From assembly GCA_042852035.1 (NCBI GenBank), contig BAAFHK010000001.1, forward strand, positions 420,001 to 452,000: a DNA stretch of 32,000 bases, read 5' to 3'. Source of the stretch: Candidatus Saccharimonadota bacterium (GTDB lineage Bacteria > Patescibacteriota > Gracilibacteria > BD1-5 > UBA2023). Below the pieces are notes generated by a model that worked only from the letters and a program-made list of their open reading frames with translations, had not been told where the DNA came from and made no database searches. Shown here piece by piece: positions 15,855 through 32,000 of this stretch. Within the stretch, counting starts at the first letter, position 1. The number at the start of each line of letters is the position of its first letter. The position numbers were made by a program, and so were the translations under genes.

Positions 15855-16118
15855 ATGTATCCAACAATAATTAATGATTCCCTTGAGTTCAATATGCTTT
15901 ATGCCTTTAAACTAGTTTACCTATATTTTATCTGTGATATGGAAGAGTTTGTTAATAAAATAGACATCAATGATCCTTCAACTTTTAATGATTATTTACA
16001 AGTACAATTTCTTCTAAAACTTATAGATGATTGAGTAATTGAGGTAGACACAGAGGCTGAGGATGGTGAATCCATAAAGATACAGGTTTATACAGATTGG
16101 ATCACTCCAGTATTTTAG
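15855..16118 (+). CDS. small acidic hypothetical protein, family A copy 2 (87 aa)
   Basis: MYPTIINDSLEFN...FNDYLQVQFLLKLIDDGVIEVDTE is collinear with copy 1. A TGA=Gly occupies the equivalent position (C/D-G-V-I-E) in both copies. Confidence 0.55.
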
Positions 16119-17111: not shown

Positions 17112-17483
17112 ATGAAAGCATCATCTCCTCAATACCTGTCTAACTACTATAAATACGTTCGTTCTCATATCAATCAGACAATGCTTGTCGAAGAATTATT
17201 AAAGAAATCTATCATCTCTTATGACGATATAGAATGAATCTATGACGAAGAAACTGAAGAATATAGGGAAGTGTATCAATGGCTTATATTCAATAATTTT
17301 GATTCAAGAGATTATGAAAAACTCATTGCCAATAATATCCCTGTAATTCAATCTGATTATGAAACTTGGGTTGGTATTACTTCATTCTGAAGTCACTATA
17401 ACCTCTACGTATATCCTGAGCTTATCAATGCACTCTTTGATCTCAATATTTCTTATGAAGATATTCAGAATATCTCTCCGTAA
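17112..17483 (+). CDS. small acidic hypothetical protein, family B copy 2 (123 aa)
   Basis: YQWLIFNNFDSRDYEKLIANNIPVIQSDYETWVGITSFGSHYNLYVYPELINALFDLN is collinear with copy 1. Confidence 0.6.
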
Positions 17484-18128: not shown

Positions 18129-18203
18129 TGGCAGCTCTGCTCAGAATCGAACTGAGGTCAACGGCTTTGGAGACCGCTACACTAACCGCTGTGCTACAGA
18201 GCT
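18129..18203 (-). tRNA. trnW: tRNA-Trp (anticodon CCA), CCA-3' encoded, 75 nt
   Basis: Hand-folded cloverleaf: acceptor AGCTCTG/CAGAGCT, D arm GCAC-AGCGGTTA-GTGT, anticodon arm GCGGT-CTCCAAA-GCCGT, 4-nt variable loop, T arm CTCAG-TTCGATT-CTGAG, discriminator G + CCA. A CCA anticodon reads UGG only, so UGA is not Trp here. Confidence 0.9.
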
Positions 18204-18931: not shown

Positions 18932-19873
18932 TTATTGTATATTAAAACTTACAGAGATTCTTTTTGCAGCTTCAAAGAGTTCAGTAGCTAGTTTTTTTCT
19001 TCATCTTCATTCATCTGCCAATCAATCCTTGTGGATTTTTTCTCAGAGAAGTTTTAGGAATTCAGCAAGTTTTCAGTAATTGAGTTTTCAAATTCTCTCA
19101 CCTAGTGTAGCATTAGGAATACCTTGAATATCTGAGGTATGTTTTGGATTAAGGGGAGCTTTTAGAAATGGTTTACAGATTTCCCAAGCAGTCATGATAT
19201 GAATGGATGCTTCTTGAAGATTTTGTGATGCTTTTAGAATTAATCTATCTAATTCAGATGGATCATCTAATTCATTATGTTTCTTAGATTCAAGAGTAAG
19301 AGTCTCACTGAGTTTAGAAAGAACTGCTGCAAGGGCATCATAGTAAAGATCTCCTACCTTTTCAGCTAATTCTTCTTGATTCATTATTATTCATTCAACC
19401 TCTCATCTTTTTATATGTTTCTTAGCCTCTTCATCTAAAACAAAATGTTTTTCTAATGCTTCCTCATAGGTAAGACCTTCCCATTCCATTACTGCAAGAA
19501 CCATAGAATCCAAAAACATATCTATATCTGGATAGACCTTTCTCTCTGTTGCAATATCAATGGTAGTGTAGTGATATTTATCATCACCTACACCCATTCA
19601 TAAACTTCTCATATATTTTGCCTTCTCTGCCTTAGGGAGCACCTTCACTCATTCCTTCATTTTCTTAGCCTGTTCTTCCTGATATTTTATATAAGCTTCA
19701 GCAATATGAGTACCTTCTGAAACTAAAGTAAATACAGGAATGTTGTCTACAAAAACAGTATCTTCATACTTTCCATTTCATAAATCCTTTCTTTCTATCT
19801 TTTGATTAGAAGAAATGGTATATGTCTCAATCTGAGGATTTCAAGAATGTATAAGTGAATCAGGAGTAAGCAT
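18932..19873 (-). CDS. hypothetical protein (313 aa); joins track ORFs 19403-19597 and 19088-19384 in frame
   Basis: No TAA or TAG between the ATG at 19873 and the TAA at 18932-18934. The two track ORFs are linked by ...KKHIKR-G-EVE-G-II-MNQEE..., with the two Gly = TGA at 19403-19405 and 19391-19393. No recognisable domain. Confidence 0.55.
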
Positions 19874-19910: not shown

Positions 19911-21959
19911 TTATGGTATTTGTGAGGCAAGAATTTTATAAGTTGTTTTTCAGTCAGGTGTAGTTTGTGGCTCAATCTTCAGTATTTCAATTTTAGTTCA
20001 TGGGAGAAAGAGTGATTCCTGTGGAGTATTTGTTTTGTTTATTTTCTGAGCAAATTGAACAAAGAATGCTAAATCAGATATATCTTTTGCCTGAGTGGCA
20101 TTTATAACTGTAATTTGATAGGTTCAATTATTCCAGAATGGTTCTGTTGGAGGATTGGAAGCGGAAGTAAACCAATCAAGGGTTTTGGTATCTCATTTTT
20201 TAAGTCATCAGAAATTGTGACTGTCTCAGATAAATTGTATAGTGTGTTGTGCTTGTGGCATTTTTTCAAGTCCGGATTGAAGAAGTTTTGCCATTTCTGA
20301 ATTTCTCAAATTTCAACTTCTCATTCACATATTTAATTCTTTATTAAAGAGTCATAAAGTATACCCATATACAGCATGTGCTTCTTCTAATGTCATTCAA
20401 TGTTTTTGAGCTGTTGATTCCACAAGAGCTTTATATTCAGGATCTGTTTTCCAGTTTTTATATTTTGTAGCTATTTTTGATTCTGGAATTCATATTTCCT
20501 GAATTGCTTTGATGTAATTTTCAGGTATTCAGAGTTTTATTAGCTCTCTTATCTGTTCTCATTTTCAGAGAGTTTCAGCAACCTTGGTTTTCACTCATTC
20601 CTGAATCTGTGGAAGTGTAGATTGAACTCTTTCAGCAGTTGCTCTTACTCACTGAGCTCAAATCTCAGTAGCAGTGGTATTTTTTGTAGCAGTGGCAGCA
20701 ATTTCTTTCATTTTTACTACTACTTGCTCTACTTCATCTATAACGTCTAGATTTACTCAATTTTTGAGTCTTTCAGGAGGAGTAATTTTTCCAGATTGTT
20801 TCATCTGCTCCAAACTGGTATCATAGAGCATCTTCTTTAGCTTTTCTTCTCAGAACTTTTCTAGAGCCCAAGCTGAAACATTAGCAGAATTAGGAGCAAC
20901 GGTTCAGAACTTGGCTTTCATATCCCTCTCAAATCCTGCCTTGGCTCATGGGATAAAAAGAAGAACATAGCCTGCAATCTTGGCTGCTTCATCCCCTCAG
21001 AAATATCTGACAGCTTCATGATATGCTCATATTTTTCAGGCATCTGCTAAGATATTTACAGCTCATTTTCCTACTTTCATGAGAGTACCATTACTAGCCT
21101 CAGTCTGTACTACTTTTACTCAGGGAACAAGTACCTTAGCAAGTCTAGAAGTATTTACAGCTTCCATAGTTCCTACTGATGCCTGAATCATTCTTTCTGA
21201 TTTTATTCATTTTGAAATCAGACCTCAAACTGGTCATGATGCTGCCATCACAAGAAGGGAATCAGTTCAGAGAAGTTCATTTCCTATTTCAGAAACATAC
21301 TTCTTCCAGATTTCCTCAGCAATGTTCATCATTTCTTGTTTTGCTATTGCCTCATGTTTTGTACCTTTGAGTTTTTCATAGAGTGGTTGAGCTAGGAGTT
21401 CTCATTTTGGAATCTTTTTTCTGAGTTCTCTGGCTTTATCCAGATAAAAATCTGCCATAGCTTCATCTGGACTTGAACTCTGTGAAGTCATAAGTCTTCA
21501 TTCAGGACTATCCAGAAATGATTTCATCAGTGGATCTTTTTGTATATCTTCCCATCTTTTTCATTCTTTCAGGGCATATTCTATTCTTGGAAGTGCTATA
21601 TTTCTCATTCCCACAAGTTCAGAGTATGCTTCTACAATATCTACTTTGGCTCATGAATTAGTATTTCCATCTCATCTGATGAGAGTAGAGAATCACCAAT
21701 AGTTTTCAGGGGTTACAAAGTTGGAAAATGAATACTCTTTTTCTCTGAGTGCTTTTACTCTTTCTTGCCAATCTTTTACTTGTTTTTGGAACTCTTCTCT
21801 CATCACTGGAAGTCTCTCTGAAAGAACCACTTTCATCTGTTTATCTGTATTAGATTCTGGTGGTCTGGATTGTTCTTTCTGAGCCTCTAATTTCTTTTGT
21901 TCTTTCAGTCTTTCTTCATAGGCTCTATCCTCACTATGTGATGATGGGTTTTCTCACAT
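19911..21959 (-). CDS. large protein with C-terminal ADP-ribosyltransferase(ART)-toxin-like domain (682 aa)
   Basis: Invisible in the standard-code track (>45 in-frame TGA). The C-terminus AHAVYGYTLGLFNKELNMGMRSG ... LEKMPQAQHTIQFIGDS ... LDWFTSAS ... TPQESLFLPGTKIEILKIE follows the ART order (Y-x-YT..N..LR.G / [YF]RG strand / STS-like / catalytic Glu + L-x-PG). The usual Arg is Ile (FIG). The N-terminus is charged coiled-coil. The middle has Gly/Ala-rich hydrophobic segments. Confidence 0.6.
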
Positions 21960-22033: not shown

Positions 22034-22612
22034 CTATTTCTTTAAGTCCATAAACTTACCATTATTTTCAGAACACTTTGACTCAAAAGAGTATGATAAT
22101 TTTCAGAATTTCATATATTCATTAATTCCAAAGAAATATTTATACTTTGGTGTTCTATTTTCCCAAGAATCTTTTATATCCTCAAATGAATGAGGATAAA
22201 GAATACTAGATAGAGATTTTAGCTTTTTCTTGTCAGAAATTCCTTTCTTATTTGGTTTGGTAAATAATGTTACCTTCTTTTCTGTATAGGCATATTTGAA
22301 TTCTATAAGTGCATAAATTTGGTCTACACACAGAGTCATTTCTAATCATTTTTCATTTTTAGACTGGTTAAAATCCACAATAGCCATATCAATTCTAGCA
22401 GAAGCATCAGTGTCTCATTTTAATATTGGATATTCACACCAAATCCTCAGACTTCATCAATCAATACAGGAGGATAAAGCCTTTCTCAAATGATAATACA
22501 TAGCTGATTGTAAAGTTCACTCTCTAACAAGAAGACTCTTGTTATAACCCTGAATTAAAAGCTCCCAAGCCTCTATGAGACTGTTATGAATAATTTTAGA
22601 TAAATCTTCCAT
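22034..22612 (-). CDS. PD-(D/E)xK-type nuclease-fold protein (192 aa)
   Basis: Motif order ...IWCEYPI ... ARIDMAIVD ... IYALIEFKY (E / D / ExK on predicted strands). Starts 16 nt after the McrC stop on the same strand. Extends track ORF 22103-22339 in both directions through TGA codons. Confidence 0.55.
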
Positions 22613-22627
22613 ACAATTTACAAGTTT

Positions 22628-23905
22628 CTAAAAAATAATACACTCATCATTTTCAAGATCATAGCTTACAGAGATGAGTTCTATGTTCTCATTATCTCCA
22701 TTATGATAATGAAATGATGGTATGCTAGGATTTAAGAAAGCATCTGTTCTAGGATATATGAGATAGAGTTTCTTGGAATGATATTTTCTAGCATAAGCAT
22801 AGAGCTGATACATATCCCCCTGAGAGATTCCATAGTTTCCAGCCTCATCATTTTCATTTATGAGCTTCCACTTTGTATCCATAATGATATTATCATTTTC
22901 AATGTATATATCTGGTTTGAGTTGAAACTTTGGCTTCTCTTTATGGTCTTCTATGAGGGAGTACTTTTTATCCTGAGTTTTTACTATCCATTCTGGTCTT
23001 TTTTCTTTGATTTTCTTGGCTACATAGTTCTCAAAAATCTTCTCCATAGGAAATAGAAGAGAAAAGGCTAAACTATTTCCAGCCATACTCACAATAGATT
23101 CTTCTCTCAGAAATATTCTTACCCAAGAAAGAGTAGGAACATAATAGGAGTGAAGTCTGGAAATATGAGAAGATTGTTCTATATCTTCCTCTATATTGCT
23201 TGATTTAGATATATCATTGAATGCTAGCAGGTATTCCTTTATTCTCTTTTTATTAGCATTATTCTTGCTGAGGGAATTGAGTTTTATAAGGGTGGATTTG
23301 ATGAGTCTATTTTCTGCCACATCCTCAGTAAATTCATCATATTCCACAGCAAATCTTTCTTTATGAAGAAAGTTCCTTCTGATATTTTCCATCACTTTGA
23401 GCCTGCCTTTGAGGAACTTTTCATTGGATTCTATGGTTATATAGTTCTTCTTAATTCCTCTTTTTATGAGAGTACTGAGTTCATCAAGGAAAGAGCCTAT
23501 AAATATCTCTAAAATAGGAAACTTCTGGGTTTTGAGATGAGCCTCATTAACATTCTTAAATGGACTATCTTTCAATGCTTTTAGCATTTTGAGAAATATC
23601 ATTCTTACTACTTTTTCATCTTGTTCTTTGTGAATCTTGGGAAGGATTTCAATAGTTGTGCCATCATGTGTCTGAATTACTCCTACATAATTTTGAGCTT
23701 TTATGATCTTGCCATATTTTTTATGAAAACTCATGGTAAGGATATTTTCTTCTCCATTATTTCATTCTGCTATGAATTTCTCCAAGTCTAAAAATGCTCT
23801 CTCTGAAATAAGAGCATTCTCAGAAGTTGGTTCTACTCATTCTTTGTTATAGAGGAATCCAAACTCTGGAATAGTGATATATGAGTTTGGACTAGTTATG
23901 CTCAT
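22628..23905 (-). CDS. mcrC: McrC-like endonuclease subunit of a McrBC type IV restriction system (425 aa)
   Basis: N-terminus ITIPEFGFLY...AQNYVGVIQTHDGTTIEILPKI. C-terminal nuclease core KPDIYIENDNIIMDTKWKLI...DMYQLYAY. The true ATG at 23905 lies 57 codons upstream of the track start and overlaps the mcrB stop by 14 nt. Confidence 0.85.
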
Positions 23906-26207
23906 AGATTTTTATATATGATGCCTCTGTAATATTTGGATTGAGTCTATATGTCACTTTGTCTTCATACTCTTCATTCTTTATTCCAAGAACTGAGTCT
24001 CTTTTAGAGACAATATCTTGAATAATCTTTTCCTCTCCTTCTTTCCATCATTGCTCTGTATGGTCTCAGAGGATTATCTGGATTTTCTCCCCATCTTCAT
24101 AGAAGTATTCTTGTAAAAGTGGAAGAATAGCTCTCTGGAATATTTCATTCAGCTTTTCTAGTGTTGGAGTGGTTTTGAGTGGAAGAAAAAATGCTTGTCC
24201 CAAAAGATGGTCTCTGTCATAGAGGAATTCTATTCTTTCATTGAGAGTGATAAAAAGCTTCTCTATATCAATATTGCCAACAGAGATTCCAGAGAGGACT
24301 CCACTCTGAGGGGACATCTCAACAAAACTAAATCTTCTTCTGAGTGCTATATCCATAAGAGCAATAGACCTATCTGTGGTATTCATTGTTCCTATGATAT
24401 AGAGATTGTTTGGTACTGTAAATTGTTCTCCTGAATATGGAAGCTTGGCAGTGATTGCTTCATTATTTCCATATCTCTTAGAGGTTTCAATAAGAGTAAT
24501 GAGTTCTCAGAATATCTTGGAAATATTTCCTCTATTAATCTCATCAATGATAAGAACATAGTTCTTTTTTCATTCATTCTTTATAGCTTTTGTGATATTA
24601 TTTTCCTCATCAAACTCTTTGAGTCTCTGATAAAGAGCAAAGAAATAATCAGCATTCCCATTAGCAACAGATTTTGAAGACCTTGAAGGTTTAATATCAT
24701 TTTTGGATTTTATCTTTCCAGAGATGAAATTGCTGTAATCTCTGAGAATTACCTTAGCACTTAATACCTGAAAAGTTTTTCCATTAGAAATATGGAATGA
24801 TTTTACAGAATCTCATTCCTTGGCAACATAGGCTATAATCCAACTTTCTTTTGTAACTCATTTTTCTCAGGGGAACAACTGAGGTCAGAGGGTGGAAACT
24901 CATTTATAATCCTGATATTGAGTTCAAAGTCCTGTGGTTTCACTTTCTTGAATATCATCAATATAGTCTGAATAATTTTTGAGTAACTCTTCAACTAATG
25001 ATTCATTATCTTCTGTTTGAGAGATGGAATAATTACTTTTTGCTGTCTCACAGACTTTCTTAAAAATTCAGGGAACAACTTCATATTTTACTTCCCCATT
25101 TTCTGTTTTAGCTTTGAGCCCTTCTATGAAATCCTCATAAGAAAAAGATTGGTGAAAAGTGGTAAATACCACTTGTCCTTTGGTTCTATATTCATTGAAT
25201 CTTCTGAGGAGTTCAGTTCTATCTTCCTGTTCTAATTCTTCTATACTTTTCTCTTCAATAATTGAAAGAGCATGATTAATAGAATGATATGTTTTTCCAG
25301 TTCATGGAGGTCAATAGAGTATTTGATTGAGAGGAGTATTTTTCATAGATTTTTGAGGAAGAGATATGATTTCAGGGGTAGGAGAGATTTTTTCTTGTTT
25401 TGATACTGGTTCTTTCTTCTCTTCCAGTGAATGCTGAACTACATAGGCAATTCTATCTGCTATGAGATTTTCTTGGAGGATTTCTTTCTCCTCAAGTGTG
25501 AGAAAATCAAAGTCAGGAGTATCTACTTCTACATAAGGTCTATAATCCTCAATTTCACTCTCAAACTGGTTCTTGAATTCCATATAATCTCCTGAGGCAT
25601 CTCCCATCTTGCTATAATCCATACTATGGTCTCAGAGAAATCTGAGAAAGTCATAGGCAATTCCATTAGAGATAAAGTTTTCCTTTTTGGTAAGATTGTA
25701 TATTCCTTCCAATTCAAATACTATTGAGCCTCATACATATTTGAGATCTTGATAGTCTGCTTTTTCAATTTTTTTTCATTCCTGAATTACTTTCAGAAGA
25801 TGAATATATTTCTCCAGAGAATTAGTGAAGTATCCCTTATACATATTAGACTTTGTGAGTCCAATACTAGTTGCAGAGTTTAGATGGAGAAATATATCAT
25901 TTTCTAGTGATTCTAAAATCAAAATAAGGGAAGGATTCTTTAGAAACTCTTTCATTTTGGTAGTAATATCTCTCCAATTAATCTGAGAAGCAAAGTAAAG
26001 TCCATCTACCTTTTTTTGAACTAATAGAAATTCATCAAGGATACTTTGATTATTTTTGATCTTTTCCCACTCATTCAAAATAGTAGTAACTCATTTTCTG
26101 ATATGGAGAAAGTTATCTACATTATGCTTATAAGAAACAGCCTTTGTAAATACATCACTTTGTCTCAGTATATCTTGAATTTGAGAAATCTTAACCTCTG
26201 AAATCAT
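23892..26207 (-). CDS. mcrB: McrB-like AAA+ GTPase subunit with unassigned ~290-aa N-terminal region (771 aa)
   Basis: Walker A ILYGPPGTGKT (both non-GKT Gly are TGA, at 25311-25313 and 25302-25304). Also FHQSFSYEDFIEG, Walker B [25 protein letters not shown], and IIGTMNTTDRSIALMDIALRRRFSFVEM. Track ORFs 24066-24386, 25311-25622 and 25776-26078 share this frame. Confidence 0.9.
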
Positions 26208-30389: not shown

Positions 30390-32000
30390 ATGCCTACCAT
30401 CCAAATTTGAATTGATTTATGAACCACAAATTCTGCAATTGCAATTAATAAATCAGGAAAGACCGAAATAATTAAGAATTTTGAAAGAGATGAATTTACT
30501 CCTTCAGTCTACTGATTCGATAAAGCCAAGAATCCTCTTGTATGAAAGCGTGCTTATGAAAAGCTTTACAAATATGCTGATAGTGAGGATATTTGAAACT
30601 TCAAATCTGAGATAAAGAGACTAATGTGAACTCCTGAAATTACTTATTTTCCAAGAGTTGAAAAAAGCATGAAAGCAGAAGATATTTCTGCTGAGATATT
30701 AAAATATCTTAAAAGTACGGCACTGAAACAATATCCAGATCTTGAAACTAATTGAGTAGTTATTACAGTGCCAGCACATTTTTCAACTATAGAATCAGAA
30801 GCTACTAAGAGGGCTGGTGAACTTGCTTGATTCAAAAAAGTTGTATTATTACAAGAGCCTATTGCTGCAGCAATAGCATATGGCTTTTCTGCTGATAAAA
30901 ATGCAAACTGGCTCATATACGACCTCTGAGGCGGCACGTTTGATACAGCTATAATCCAATCCATGGATGGTTTATTAAATATTTTATCAAGCAAGGGAGA
31001 TAATTTTCTCTGATGAAAAGATTTTGATTGGGCTATTGTAGATAAGATATTTATTCCAAAAATCCTAGAAAAATTTAATTTACTAAATTTTAATAGAGGA
31101 AATGAAAAATACAGAAATGCATTTAACCTGTTAAAATGATTTGCTGAAAATGCTAAAAAAATGCTCACATATGATAATGAGGTTACTATTGAGATTGATA
31201 AAATTTGAATGGATGACAATGAAAAGGAAATTTATATGAATATAACTTTAACTCGAAAAGAATTTGAAGAGCTAATAAATCCTTTTATTAAGAAATCAAT
31301 ATCACTTGTAGAAGAAACTATTAAAGAATCATGAATTAGTAAAAATAAAATAGATAAGATTGTCCTTGTTGGATGAAGCACACAAACCCCTTATATTAAA
31401 GAAAAGTTAGAAAAAGAAATTGGCATCTCCGTGGACTCAAGTGTTGATCCTCTCACTGTGGTAGCATATGGAGCATCTGTATATGCACAAACTCAAGTTA
31501 TAGAAATAGAGAAAGATAATAAAAAAACTTATAATTCCGAGTTACATAATATAAAATTGAATTTCGAGACCGTTACTACTGAAAGTGAGGAAACTATAAG
31601 TGGTATAATTGACGGACTTGAGGAAAACAAGGAATACTATCTGCAAATTCAAAGTGAAAGTGGTTATTATTCAAGCAATAAGATCCTTATTAGAAATTGA
31701 AAATTTATTACAGATGTTCAAGTTGAATCAGGAAAAGTAAACCTTTATTGGATATATTTATTTGATTCATCATGATGAGTTTTAGAGCTATCTACAGATA
31801 GTTTCTCAATAACTCATGGATTAACGGTGGGAGCAATACCAATACCATCAAGTATTGGTGTGTCTATAGCGAGACAAAATAGCGATACACTGTCTTGGCA
31901 ATCAGAAATGTTTTGGTTCTTTGAAAAAAATTCAAAATTACCATTATCTAAGACTCATGAATTTAAAACAACGAGCACAATTAGAAAATGAAGTGCTGAA
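30390..32000 (+). CDS. Hsp70-family ATPase, non-canonical C-terminal region; 3' end beyond the window
   Basis: IQIGIDLGTTNSAIA (Gly = TGA at 30408 and 30420), VVITVPAHFS, LLQEPIAAAIAYG, LIYDLGGGTFD (TGA at 30927), VLVGGSTQTPYIKEKL, DPLTVVAYGASVYA. No DVTPLSLGIE-type linker follows the NBD. Instead there is a ~110-aa unrelated segment, then ITHGLTVGAIPIPSSIGVSIA. Confidence 0.9.

Follow-up and report, generated by a model that had tools for sequence, protein, structure and literature searches.

The 32,000-nucleotide (nt) stretch of contig BAAFHK010000001.1 analysed here (hereafter the window) carries on its minus strand a long gene, hidden from the standard genetic code, for a putative polymorphic toxin whose C-terminal part is predicted to fold as an ADP-ribosyltransferase (ART) and, directly downstream, a gene for a 313-amino-acid (aa) protein that is a candidate for its immunity protein (Table 1). 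Under the standard code, the longest minus-strand open reading frame (ORF) in the toxin interval is 55 aa long, in agreement with an earlier note on this DNA that had seen no standard-code ORF on this strand. If TGA is a sense codon, as that note had proposed, a single frame of 2049 nt is open for 682 codons up to a TAA stop, with in-frame TGA codons as its only interruptions; these number 38 on recounting, and not more than 45 as first reported. Over the whole window, the summed length of ORFs of at least 100 aa (six frames, overlaps included) amounts to 9.3 kb if all three stops are kept and rises to 49.8 kb with TGA as sense, against 15.9 kb when TAG and 25.3 kb when TAA is freed instead. 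The reading of TGA as glycine, also suggested earlier, holds because TGA occupies conserved Gly positions both in neighbouring genes and in the toxin itself: the glycines of Walker A in the McrB-like ORF (LY-TGA-PP-TGA-TGKTY), I-TGA-IDL-TGA-TTNS in the Hsp70-like ORF, HI-TGA-S in GltX and, in the ART domain, the last residue of [YF]-R-G, a position that is Gly in 45 of 52 homologues and affected by TGA=Trp mistranslation in five more. TGA thus encodes Gly, not Trp (code 25), and the genome is that of a member of the Patescibacteria. To our knowledge, code 25 occurs only in Gracilibacteria and Absconditabacteria. A tRNA-Gly(UCA) was not found within the window.

The gene is real, since a copy with identical DNA and a number of homologues are present on independent contigs from metagenomes or from a metagenome-assembled genome (MAG). 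A scan of GTDB genomes retrieved a relative in one genome only, labelled as a Patescibacteria MAG. The public predictions of these proteins (P0002-P0010) were translated with TGA=Trp, to the point that P0002, DNA-identical to the window gene, scored 94% identity with it, and this mistranslation suffices to hide the relationship with the Pfam family ADPrib_exo_Tox.

The nine relatives recovered by homologue search share aa 1-440 with the window protein (35-89% identity) and, past the invariant T431-E432-x-G434-x-Q436, ART-type and non-ART-type members can no longer be aligned. One N-terminal domain bears five C-terminal types in the count made from alignment A1 (ART, Tas1-like, two kinase-like and one unknown). 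The ART type comprises the window protein, P0003, P0004, P0005 and P0007 (by alignment); P0009 ends in a Tas1-like (p)ppApp synthetase (6OX6, E 6.6e-11); P0006 and P0010 carry kinase-like domains with an HxDxxxxN..IDxG motif and weak APH/ABC1 matches; and P0008 has an unassigned C-terminus unlike the other types. Given its fusion to a Tas1-like domain in P0009, the N-terminal domain carries interbacterial-type toxins. The downstream gene varies together with the C-terminus. A homologue of the 313-aa protein (39-84% identity) lies directly downstream of every ART-type member (loci L001, L006, L007 and L012) and of no other type; an HD_4 hydrolase (E 3.3e-10) follows the Tas1-like toxin, an alpha/beta-hydrolase-like gene follows P0008, and unrelated genes of 168 and 181 aa follow the two kinase types. 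The loci L006 (ART) and L009 (kinase) are syntenic and diverge at the junction, the ART domain and partner gene of L006 being inserted ahead of a retained 168-aa gene. Similarly, L004 (4903-9000) contains the Tas1-like toxin P0009, its HD_4 hydrolase and, behind these, an orphan alpha/beta-hydrolase-like gene, which shares 89% identity with the one downstream of P0008 in L010. Orphan immunity cassettes of this kind were seen in the related loci L006 and L004, and none was detected in the window. Displacement of C-termini with orphan immunity genes left behind is the classic pattern that appears in exported polymorphic toxins and, as judged from this arrangement, the window gene is a polymorphic toxin with an adjacent immunity gene candidate. 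This architecture, which was absent from the earlier note, explains the gene.

The N-terminal domain is more difficult to interpret. It begins with a conserved charged leader in its first ~40 residues (E15..L18..QKE..S-x-P-x-ES), without the hydrophobic core of a signal peptide, and no match to a secretion or trafficking domain was found in Pfam, NCBIfam, PHROGs or the PDB, so that both absences reported earlier were borne out. The same family searches found no RHS/YD repeats, haemagglutinin repeats, PAAR, VgrG or LXG in it. The Gly/Ala-rich, moderately hydrophobic segments pointed out in the middle of the protein do exist (aa 229-252 and 324-343), but a transmembrane reading of them was rejected, their best 19-residue Kyte-Doolittle mean being 1.31, below the usual threshold of 1.6. 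Its fold is not assignable because the AlphaFold2 (AF2) model, although helical, is poor (predicted local distance difference test, pLDDT, 50), and neither Foldseek with that model (no match below E 1) nor a profile of the domain against the PDB gave a match. The remote relatives of this domain (E 1e-12 to 1e-4) are uncharacterised proteins of 550-1250 aa from standard-code bacteria, one of them a Deltaproteobacteria MAG, and have no significant Pfam annotation; the neighbours of one of these homologues, P0041, are housekeeping genes and thus uninformative.

In the case of the C-terminal domain, searches with the full-length protein against Pfam, NCBIfam and PHROGs gave no match, and neither did its uncorrected database homologues; against Pfam, ADPrib_exo_Tox included, the window protein had no match at E<=1, and phmmer of the full protein against PDB sequences returned only noise. 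The earlier note had called an ART domain from the order of its motifs, all of which are present: AVYGYTLGLFNKELNMGMRSG, QFIGDS (with Ile577), WFTSAS (with Ser599) and PQESLFLPGTKIEI (with Glu648). The comparison that it proposed, AlphaFold followed by Foldseek, indeed found ART-fold matches. An AF2 model based on alignment A2 (four sequences, last 216 aa) reached a pLDDT of 85 and a predicted TM-score (pTM) of 0.84, with low confidence only at the loop preceding the catalytic Glu (aa 634-643, the ADP-ribosylating turn-turn or ARTT loop). Foldseek against the PDB produced 133 matches at E<=1e-3, and all 50 matches listed are ADP-ribosyltransferases, with Tre1 as the best (6DRH/6DRE, E 5e-9 to 3.5e-8, TMt 0.69-0.73), followed by C2-I, Plx2A, CDTa, XopAI, C3, Vis and ExoS/T; the Foldseek probability was 1.0 for Tre1, C2-I, C3, CDTa, Vis and ExoS/T. 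Tre1 was also the sole significant match of the A2 profile against PDB sequences (E 1.3e-5), in an alignment that pairs eeAHAvYGYT..LN..LR with DQIGAIYGYT..LNPALRG, GLeKlP..iqYRGd with GLNKLP..ETYRGT, and dwFvSTS with GGFMSTS. When C-termini were corrected to TGA=Gly, Pfam ADPrib_exo_Tox matched the Arg-bearing relatives P0007 (E 5.7e-5, 23.0 bits) and P0004 (E 2.3e-4, 21.0 bits) just under its gathering score of 23.4. The C-terminal ~210 aa are therefore confidently predicted by the model to fold as an ADP-ribosyltransferase. An exhaustive phmmer search showed that the same ART domain caps proteins of standard-code bacteria that belong to known delivery families, namely an RHS-repeat protein (P0019), DUF637/CdiA-like proteins (P0017 and P0059) and a VgrG (P0027). 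In the VgrG-ART locus (L016), a DraG-like ADP-ribosylhydrolase gene (PF03747) lies two genes downstream, paralleling Tri1.

An intriguing aspect of this domain concerns its active site, since the Arg of the [YF]-R-G motif, already noticed as missing, is indeed replaced by Ile577, both in the window and in L007. In a 54-sequence alignment of the ART domain, 52 of them outside the window lineage (the window and L007), the X residue of the motif P-x(3-5)-Q-[YF]-X-G is Arg in 48 of these 52 sequences, Met in four cluster representatives (P0013, P0015, P0017 and P0019) and Ile only in the window and L007. The profile alignment sets the Ile of FIG on the Arg of Tre1 YRG, and the closest relatives (P0004, P0005 and P0007) carry Arg, which implies that the domain descends from an R-S-E family. 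Since P0002 is DNA-identical to the window gene, the independent Ile sequences are two, the window and L007. Arg and Ile are here two nucleotide changes apart (AGA versus ATC) and the flanking codons differ synonymously between both sequences. Ile577 is thus a derived and stable character and not a sequencing error, given this two-nucleotide change common to both sequences and the synonymous differences around it; a recent point mutation was rejected likewise, the two sequences being separated by 52 synonymous differences. Ile577 is the one clear departure of the window protein at a column conserved at 90% or more, the columns of that class that it keeps being Tyr533, Thr534, Asn543, Lys566, Pro568, Phe597, Ser599, Ile627, Leu630 and Glu648. 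Glu648 is followed by S-L-F-L-P-G and preceded by P-Q, so that the E/Q-x-E motif is absent, as first described. This absence is family-wide: at position -2 relative to the Glu, the members of the ART family have S, P, T or A, and none has the canonical E/Q. Arg-specific ARTs follow an ExE rule (PMC11606950), and the family, having a single Glu, is probably an R-S-E group that is not Arg-specific like the ExE enzymes. The suggestion that the His of QAQHTIQF (His572) might be a substitute catalytic residue found no support: this residue is peculiar to the lineage, comes ahead of strand beta1 and is without an equivalent among the Met sequences.

The four Met sequences form a subclade with Q-[YF]-M-G-M (for example L014, 387-4466) that also lacks the Arg of the LN..LR helix. 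It arose independently of the Ile lineage, has been kept across four clusters with <50% mutual identity, and is found on intact Rhs and CdiA-like toxins of standard-code bacteria, the intact Rhs toxin having an adjoining downstream gene.

Substitution rates calculated by the Nei-Gojobori method under code 25 between the window and L007 reveal very strong purifying selection on the Ile-bearing domain. The ART domain shows 52 synonymous and 6 non-synonymous differences (synonymous rate dS 0.89, non-synonymous rate dN 0.016, dN/dS 0.018), a stricter constraint than on the N-terminal domain (dS 0.42, dN 0.033, dN/dS 0.078), and the partner gene has a dS of 0.80, a dN of 0.094 and a dN/dS of 0.117. 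A dN/dS of 0.018 excludes a decaying, inactivated domain, which leaves a site that still works or a fold retained for some other purpose. The earlier note had hesitated between a divergent ART and an inactivated fold; this choice is now narrowed, in that the nearest relatives carry Arg and show descent from an R-S-E family, and a fold inactivated by decay does not survive. A different situation is seen in L012 (9951-10070), where the ART-type allele P0005 is interrupted by an in-frame TAA directly behind its catalytic Glu (QE, the stop, and then LIPPDTK...). The 37 codons past this TAA are still conserved, the close relative P0011 has Ser at that place, and the partner gene remains. It looks like a recent nonsense mutation that would truncate the toxin, so detoxifying mutations do arise in this family.

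The 313-aa protein has no Pfam or PDB relative. A DraG-like or macrodomain immunity was considered and rejected, the family having no match of either kind by sequence; in particular, PF03747 did not match the 313-aa ORF or its four homologues at E<=5. Its members share conserved motifs (YPDID-x-FLD, YEEAL, GDLYYD-x-L, H-I-x-x-AWEICK and PKHT). For related ARTs, the immunity proteins have no relation to one another, lack signatures and occlude the active site (PMC11606950). Between the window and L007, a nucleotide similarity of 88% is confined to a 3.06-kb block that begins ~70 nt upstream of the toxin start and closes where the partner gene ends, which indicates that the toxin and its partner move as a unit. 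In addition, the gene directly after the Rhs-ART (Met) toxin of L014 scored 21 bits against positions 34-145 of the 313-aa profile, and the same segment is matched by all five members of the 313-aa family, a similarity between the Rhs-ART follower and this family that is suggestive only. With its position and co-variation with the ART type, the 313-aa protein is the probable cognate immunity protein.

Table 1. Features of the toxin locus, its surroundings and related loci. Coordinates refer to the window unless a locus is named.
Feature	Coordinates	Strand	Remarks
Putative toxin gene, 682 codons and TAA stop	19911-21959	-	Open frame with 38 in-frame TGA (Gly); homologues P0002-P0010; identical DNA in L008
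Conserved N-terminal domain, aa 1-440, presumed delivery/trafficking module	20640-21959	-	All-helical (predicted); common to all 10 family members
Junction or pre-toxin stretch, aa 441-471	20547-20639	-	Directly past T431-E432-x-G434-x-Q436; alignments A1 and A3
Predicted C-terminal ADP-ribosyltransferase-fold toxin domain, aa 472-682, Tre1-like, R-S-E clade	19914-20546	-	AF2, Foldseek and profile match to Tre1
Codon ATC, Ile577, in place of the NAD-binding Arg of [YF]-R-G	20229-20231	-	AGA (Arg) in L006 and L001; ATC in L007
Codon of Ser599 (F-T-S-A-S), conserved Ser of the STS motif	20163-20165	-	Ser in 51/52 homologues; aligns with Tre1 FMSTS
Codon GAA, Glu648 (P-Q-E-S), candidate catalytic Glu	20016-20018	-	Glu in 51/52 homologues
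313-aa ORF, candidate cognate immunity protein	18932-19873	-	Starts 37 nt past the toxin stop; co-varies with ART type
McrC (Pfam McrBC, 2e-95) and 771-aa McrB-like AAA_5 GTPase with long N-terminal extension	22034-26207	-	Directly upstream of the toxin
tRNA-Trp(CCA)	18129-18203	-	0.7 kb downstream of the 313-aa gene, inside the low-GC island
Paralogous small ORF pair, 84/87 aa, 38% identity	15547-15801 / 15855-16118	+	No family match
Paralogous small ORF pair, 136/123 aa, 41% identity	16168-16578 / 17112-17483	+	No family match
Hsp70-family ATPase (Pfam HSP70, 3e-77), non-DnaK C-terminal region	30390-32000	+	Runs off the end; preceded by uncharacterised small ORFs
Large serine recombinase (Resolvase and Recombinase)	L001 7109-8719		2-5 kb downstream of toxin
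Large serine recombinase (Resolvase and Recombinase)	L004 9657-11264		2-5 kb downstream of toxin
Large serine recombinase (Resolvase and Recombinase)	L005 6110-7591		2-5 kb downstream of toxin
Large serine recombinase (Resolvase and Recombinase)	L010 14363-16324		2-5 kb downstream of toxin

The module lies in a low-GC stretch of the window (0.28-0.31 over ~14-30 kb, against ~0.34 elsewhere), next to McrBC genes. The stretch also contains a tRNA-Trp(CCA), which could be the integration site of this variable region. Relatives of the toxin are found near type I restriction-modification (R-M) genes (L012), a NERD gene (L004) and large serine recombinases. The presence of these recombinases in four related loci suggests carriage on integrative elements; no such gene exists in the window. 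Such surroundings would fit a mobile competition island as well as a defence island. Between the McrBC genes and the toxin, a 192-aa ORF has a D...E-x-K-like motif and an 85%-identical homologue that precedes the kinase-type member in L009. The two pairs of paralogous small ORFs form a tandem arrangement where the GC content of the window is lowest. At the end of the window, the Hsp70-family ATPase may be a conflict-system Hsp70 rather than a housekeeping chaperone. A scan for promoters and terminators around the module was uninformative (promoter-like sites fewer than in shuffled sequences, no terminators).

Among characterised systems, the closest is Tre1-Tri1 from the Serratia proteamaculans type VI secretion system (T6SS) (6DRE/6DRH), the best structural match and the sole significant profile match in the PDB. 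Both proteins have the YGYT..LN..LR helix, GLxKLP-x5-Y-R-G (with the replacement of the Arg noted above), F-x-S-T-S, and a Glu with hydrophobic residues and Pro behind it, and Tre1 likewise forms the toxic C-terminus of a modular protein that is delivered, with an adjoining immunity gene. They differ in that Tre1 has the canonical Arg and an Arg-specific E-x-E whereas the window protein has Ile577 and P-Q-E, and in the ARTT loop, longer in the window protein. Tre1 is carried by a PAAR/T6SS module while an unrelated helical domain serves as the carrier here, in a lineage where no T6SS is known, and Tri1 is a DraG-like ADP-ribosylhydrolase, unlike the 313-aa partner. The R-S-E mono-ARTs of the ADPrib_exo_Tox family (PF03496) and of C3, C2-I, VIP2 and CDTa type have the same fold and motif order, but the window protein lacks their Arg and the first E/Q of their ARTT motif and is neither a stand-alone exotoxin nor the A component of a binary toxin. 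With the Rhs, CdiA and VgrG toxins that end in ART domains (such as TreX, Tre23 and TreTu), the family has in common a conserved delivery part, a swappable tip, downstream immunity and orphan immunity genes; in contrast, its junction motif is T-x-T-E-x-G-x-Q instead of VENN or PxxxxDPxGL, and its host uses genetic code 25. The sister protein P0009, with the same N-terminal domain, matches Tas1, the T6SS (p)ppApp synthetase of Pseudomonas aeruginosa, although the HD_4 hydrolase that follows it is more like a toxSAS antitoxin, and the window gene has no RelA/SpoT homologue (RSH) domain.

We consider it reasonably probable that the locus is a polymorphic toxin-immunity module in a code-25 Patescibacteria genome (Gracilibacteria or Absconditabacteria) whose ART tip is still a working NAD+-using toxin. 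In this module, a family-specific N-terminal domain of ~440 aa, predicted as helical, is joined to an exchangeable C-terminal domain with the predicted ART fold of the R-S-E clade, in a lineage that has swapped the NAD-phosphate-binding Arg for Ile577, keeping Ser599, Glu648 and nearly all other conserved positions. The domain would act as an ADP-ribosyltransferase with an Ile-Ser-Glu site or, possibly, as an NAD+ glycohydrolase. The 313-aa protein would protect the producer by binding the toxin and occluding its active site, like TriX and like Tri1 through its N-terminal domain, and the N-terminal domain would guide the toxin's export, or its entry into the target cell, by a route outside the known polymorphic-toxin trafficking systems. 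Activity of the Ile variant is favoured by the retained active-site-associated residues, the retained partner gene and the existence of the Met subclade on Rhs/CdiA-like scaffolds, and there is a precedent in TreTu, an active ART with an unorthodox triad (PMC9825190). A bolder proposal, which we put forward tentatively and hold to be rather doubtful, is that the R-S-E scaffold works without a basic residue at the first triad position (aliphatic-Ser-Glu), perhaps with altered donor or target chemistry, and is delivered in code-25 Patescibacteria by an unrecognised helical trafficking domain that serves Tas1-like and kinase-like toxins as well. Several points weigh against these interpretations. 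Substituting this Arg in characterised R-S-E ARTs greatly reduces their activity, and no compensating basic residue was identified in a model whose coordinates were not inspected against an NAD-bound structure. Activity and neutralisation are predictions from sequence and model; we infer the delivery role of the N-terminal domain purely from architecture, it has neither a signal peptide nor similarity to known secretion or trafficking domains (Pfam, NCBIfam, PHROGs and PDB), and we know of no T6SS, contact-dependent inhibition (CDI) or type VII secretion (T7SS) export systems in this lineage. The 313-aa protein is an immunity candidate by its position, co-variation, selection and the 21-bit similarity in the Rhs locus, and the selection estimate depends on one independent pair, the window and L007. 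Finally, McrBC here, type I R-M in L012 and NERD in L004 suit an intracellular defence role equally well.

That last role, assessed here from genomic context, would be the one of a toxin-antitoxin or abortive-infection module, in which the N-terminal domain is a sensor or regulatory domain, the C-terminal domain an effector released upon phage attack, and the downstream gene an antitoxin. Because the context suits competition and defence islands alike, this alternative has to be kept in the balance, and the lack of a signal peptide or known trafficking domain, the position in a low-GC island beside McrBC (with relatives beside R-M and NERD genes) and, from general knowledge, the resemblance of an RSH toxin followed by an HD hydrolase to toxSAS toxin-antitoxin pairs all speak for it, as does the existence of ART-based antiphage systems such as DarTG and CmdTAC. 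Nevertheless, we judge it unlikely, since two of the C-terminal types have Tre1 and Tas1, interbacterial toxins delivered by T6SS, as their closest solved relatives, Rhs, CdiA-like and VgrG proteins end in the same ART domain, and the replacement of C-termini with retention of orphan immunity genes is a signature of exported polymorphic toxins. Quite unlikely, in our view, is a catalytically dead ART fold kept for binding, either to the 313-aa partner or to a former substrate, as a regulator, decoy or immunity-titrating scaffold. Such a fold would account for the replacement of the most conserved NAD contact of the clade by a non-polar residue and has a possible parallel in XopAI, one of the Foldseek matches and reportedly an ART-fold effector that binds a peptide and is not an enzyme; the premature stop of L012 after the catalytic Glu, as a detoxifying mutation, also fits it. 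However, binding alone would not require the conservation of Ser599, Glu648, Tyr533, Asn543 and other columns associated with the catalytic site, the dN/dS of 0.018 is stricter than in the rest of the protein, the partner gene is under purifying selection too, and the Met subclade resides on intact Rhs/CdiA-like scaffolds, which exist only for toxin delivery. To the idea that the frame is open by chance, or belongs to a pseudogene of a recoded genome, we give practically no credence: although the missing standard-code ORF and the full-length protein without any matching database family could be expected from it, conservation and selection refute it, with full-length homologues on at least 9 independent contigs and dN/dS values of 0.02-0.08, to which are added a confident C-terminal model and the fact that the recoding which opens the 682-codon frame also restores all housekeeping genes of the window.

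Polymorphic ART toxins and the TGA=Gly lineage were both known; an aliphatic residue at the first triad position and an unrecognised carrier domain are new. Our literature search found no paper describing polymorphic toxins of Gracilibacteria, Absconditabacteria or Patescibacteria and, as far as could be found, this is the first described polymorphic toxin system in the TGA=Gly bacteria of the candidate phyla radiation. In the databases, numerous copies are either fragmented or translated with TGA=Trp, and this conceals the family as well as its relationship with Pfam. ART toxins are classified and predicted by their triads (H-Y-E or R-S-E) and a member without the Arg is normally written off as dead. 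Two independent lineages without it, with Ile and with Met, are conserved; should they prove active, a class of toxins escapes annotation by motif, and the part played by this 'essential' Arg has to be reconsidered. The N-terminal domain, common to at least five toxin types, offers a concrete handle on how episymbionts or predators attack and compete. The bolder proposal on the aliphatic-Ser-Glu site and its carrier, if true, would point to an undescribed route of toxin export or host attack in episymbiotic or predatory code-25 Patescibacteria.

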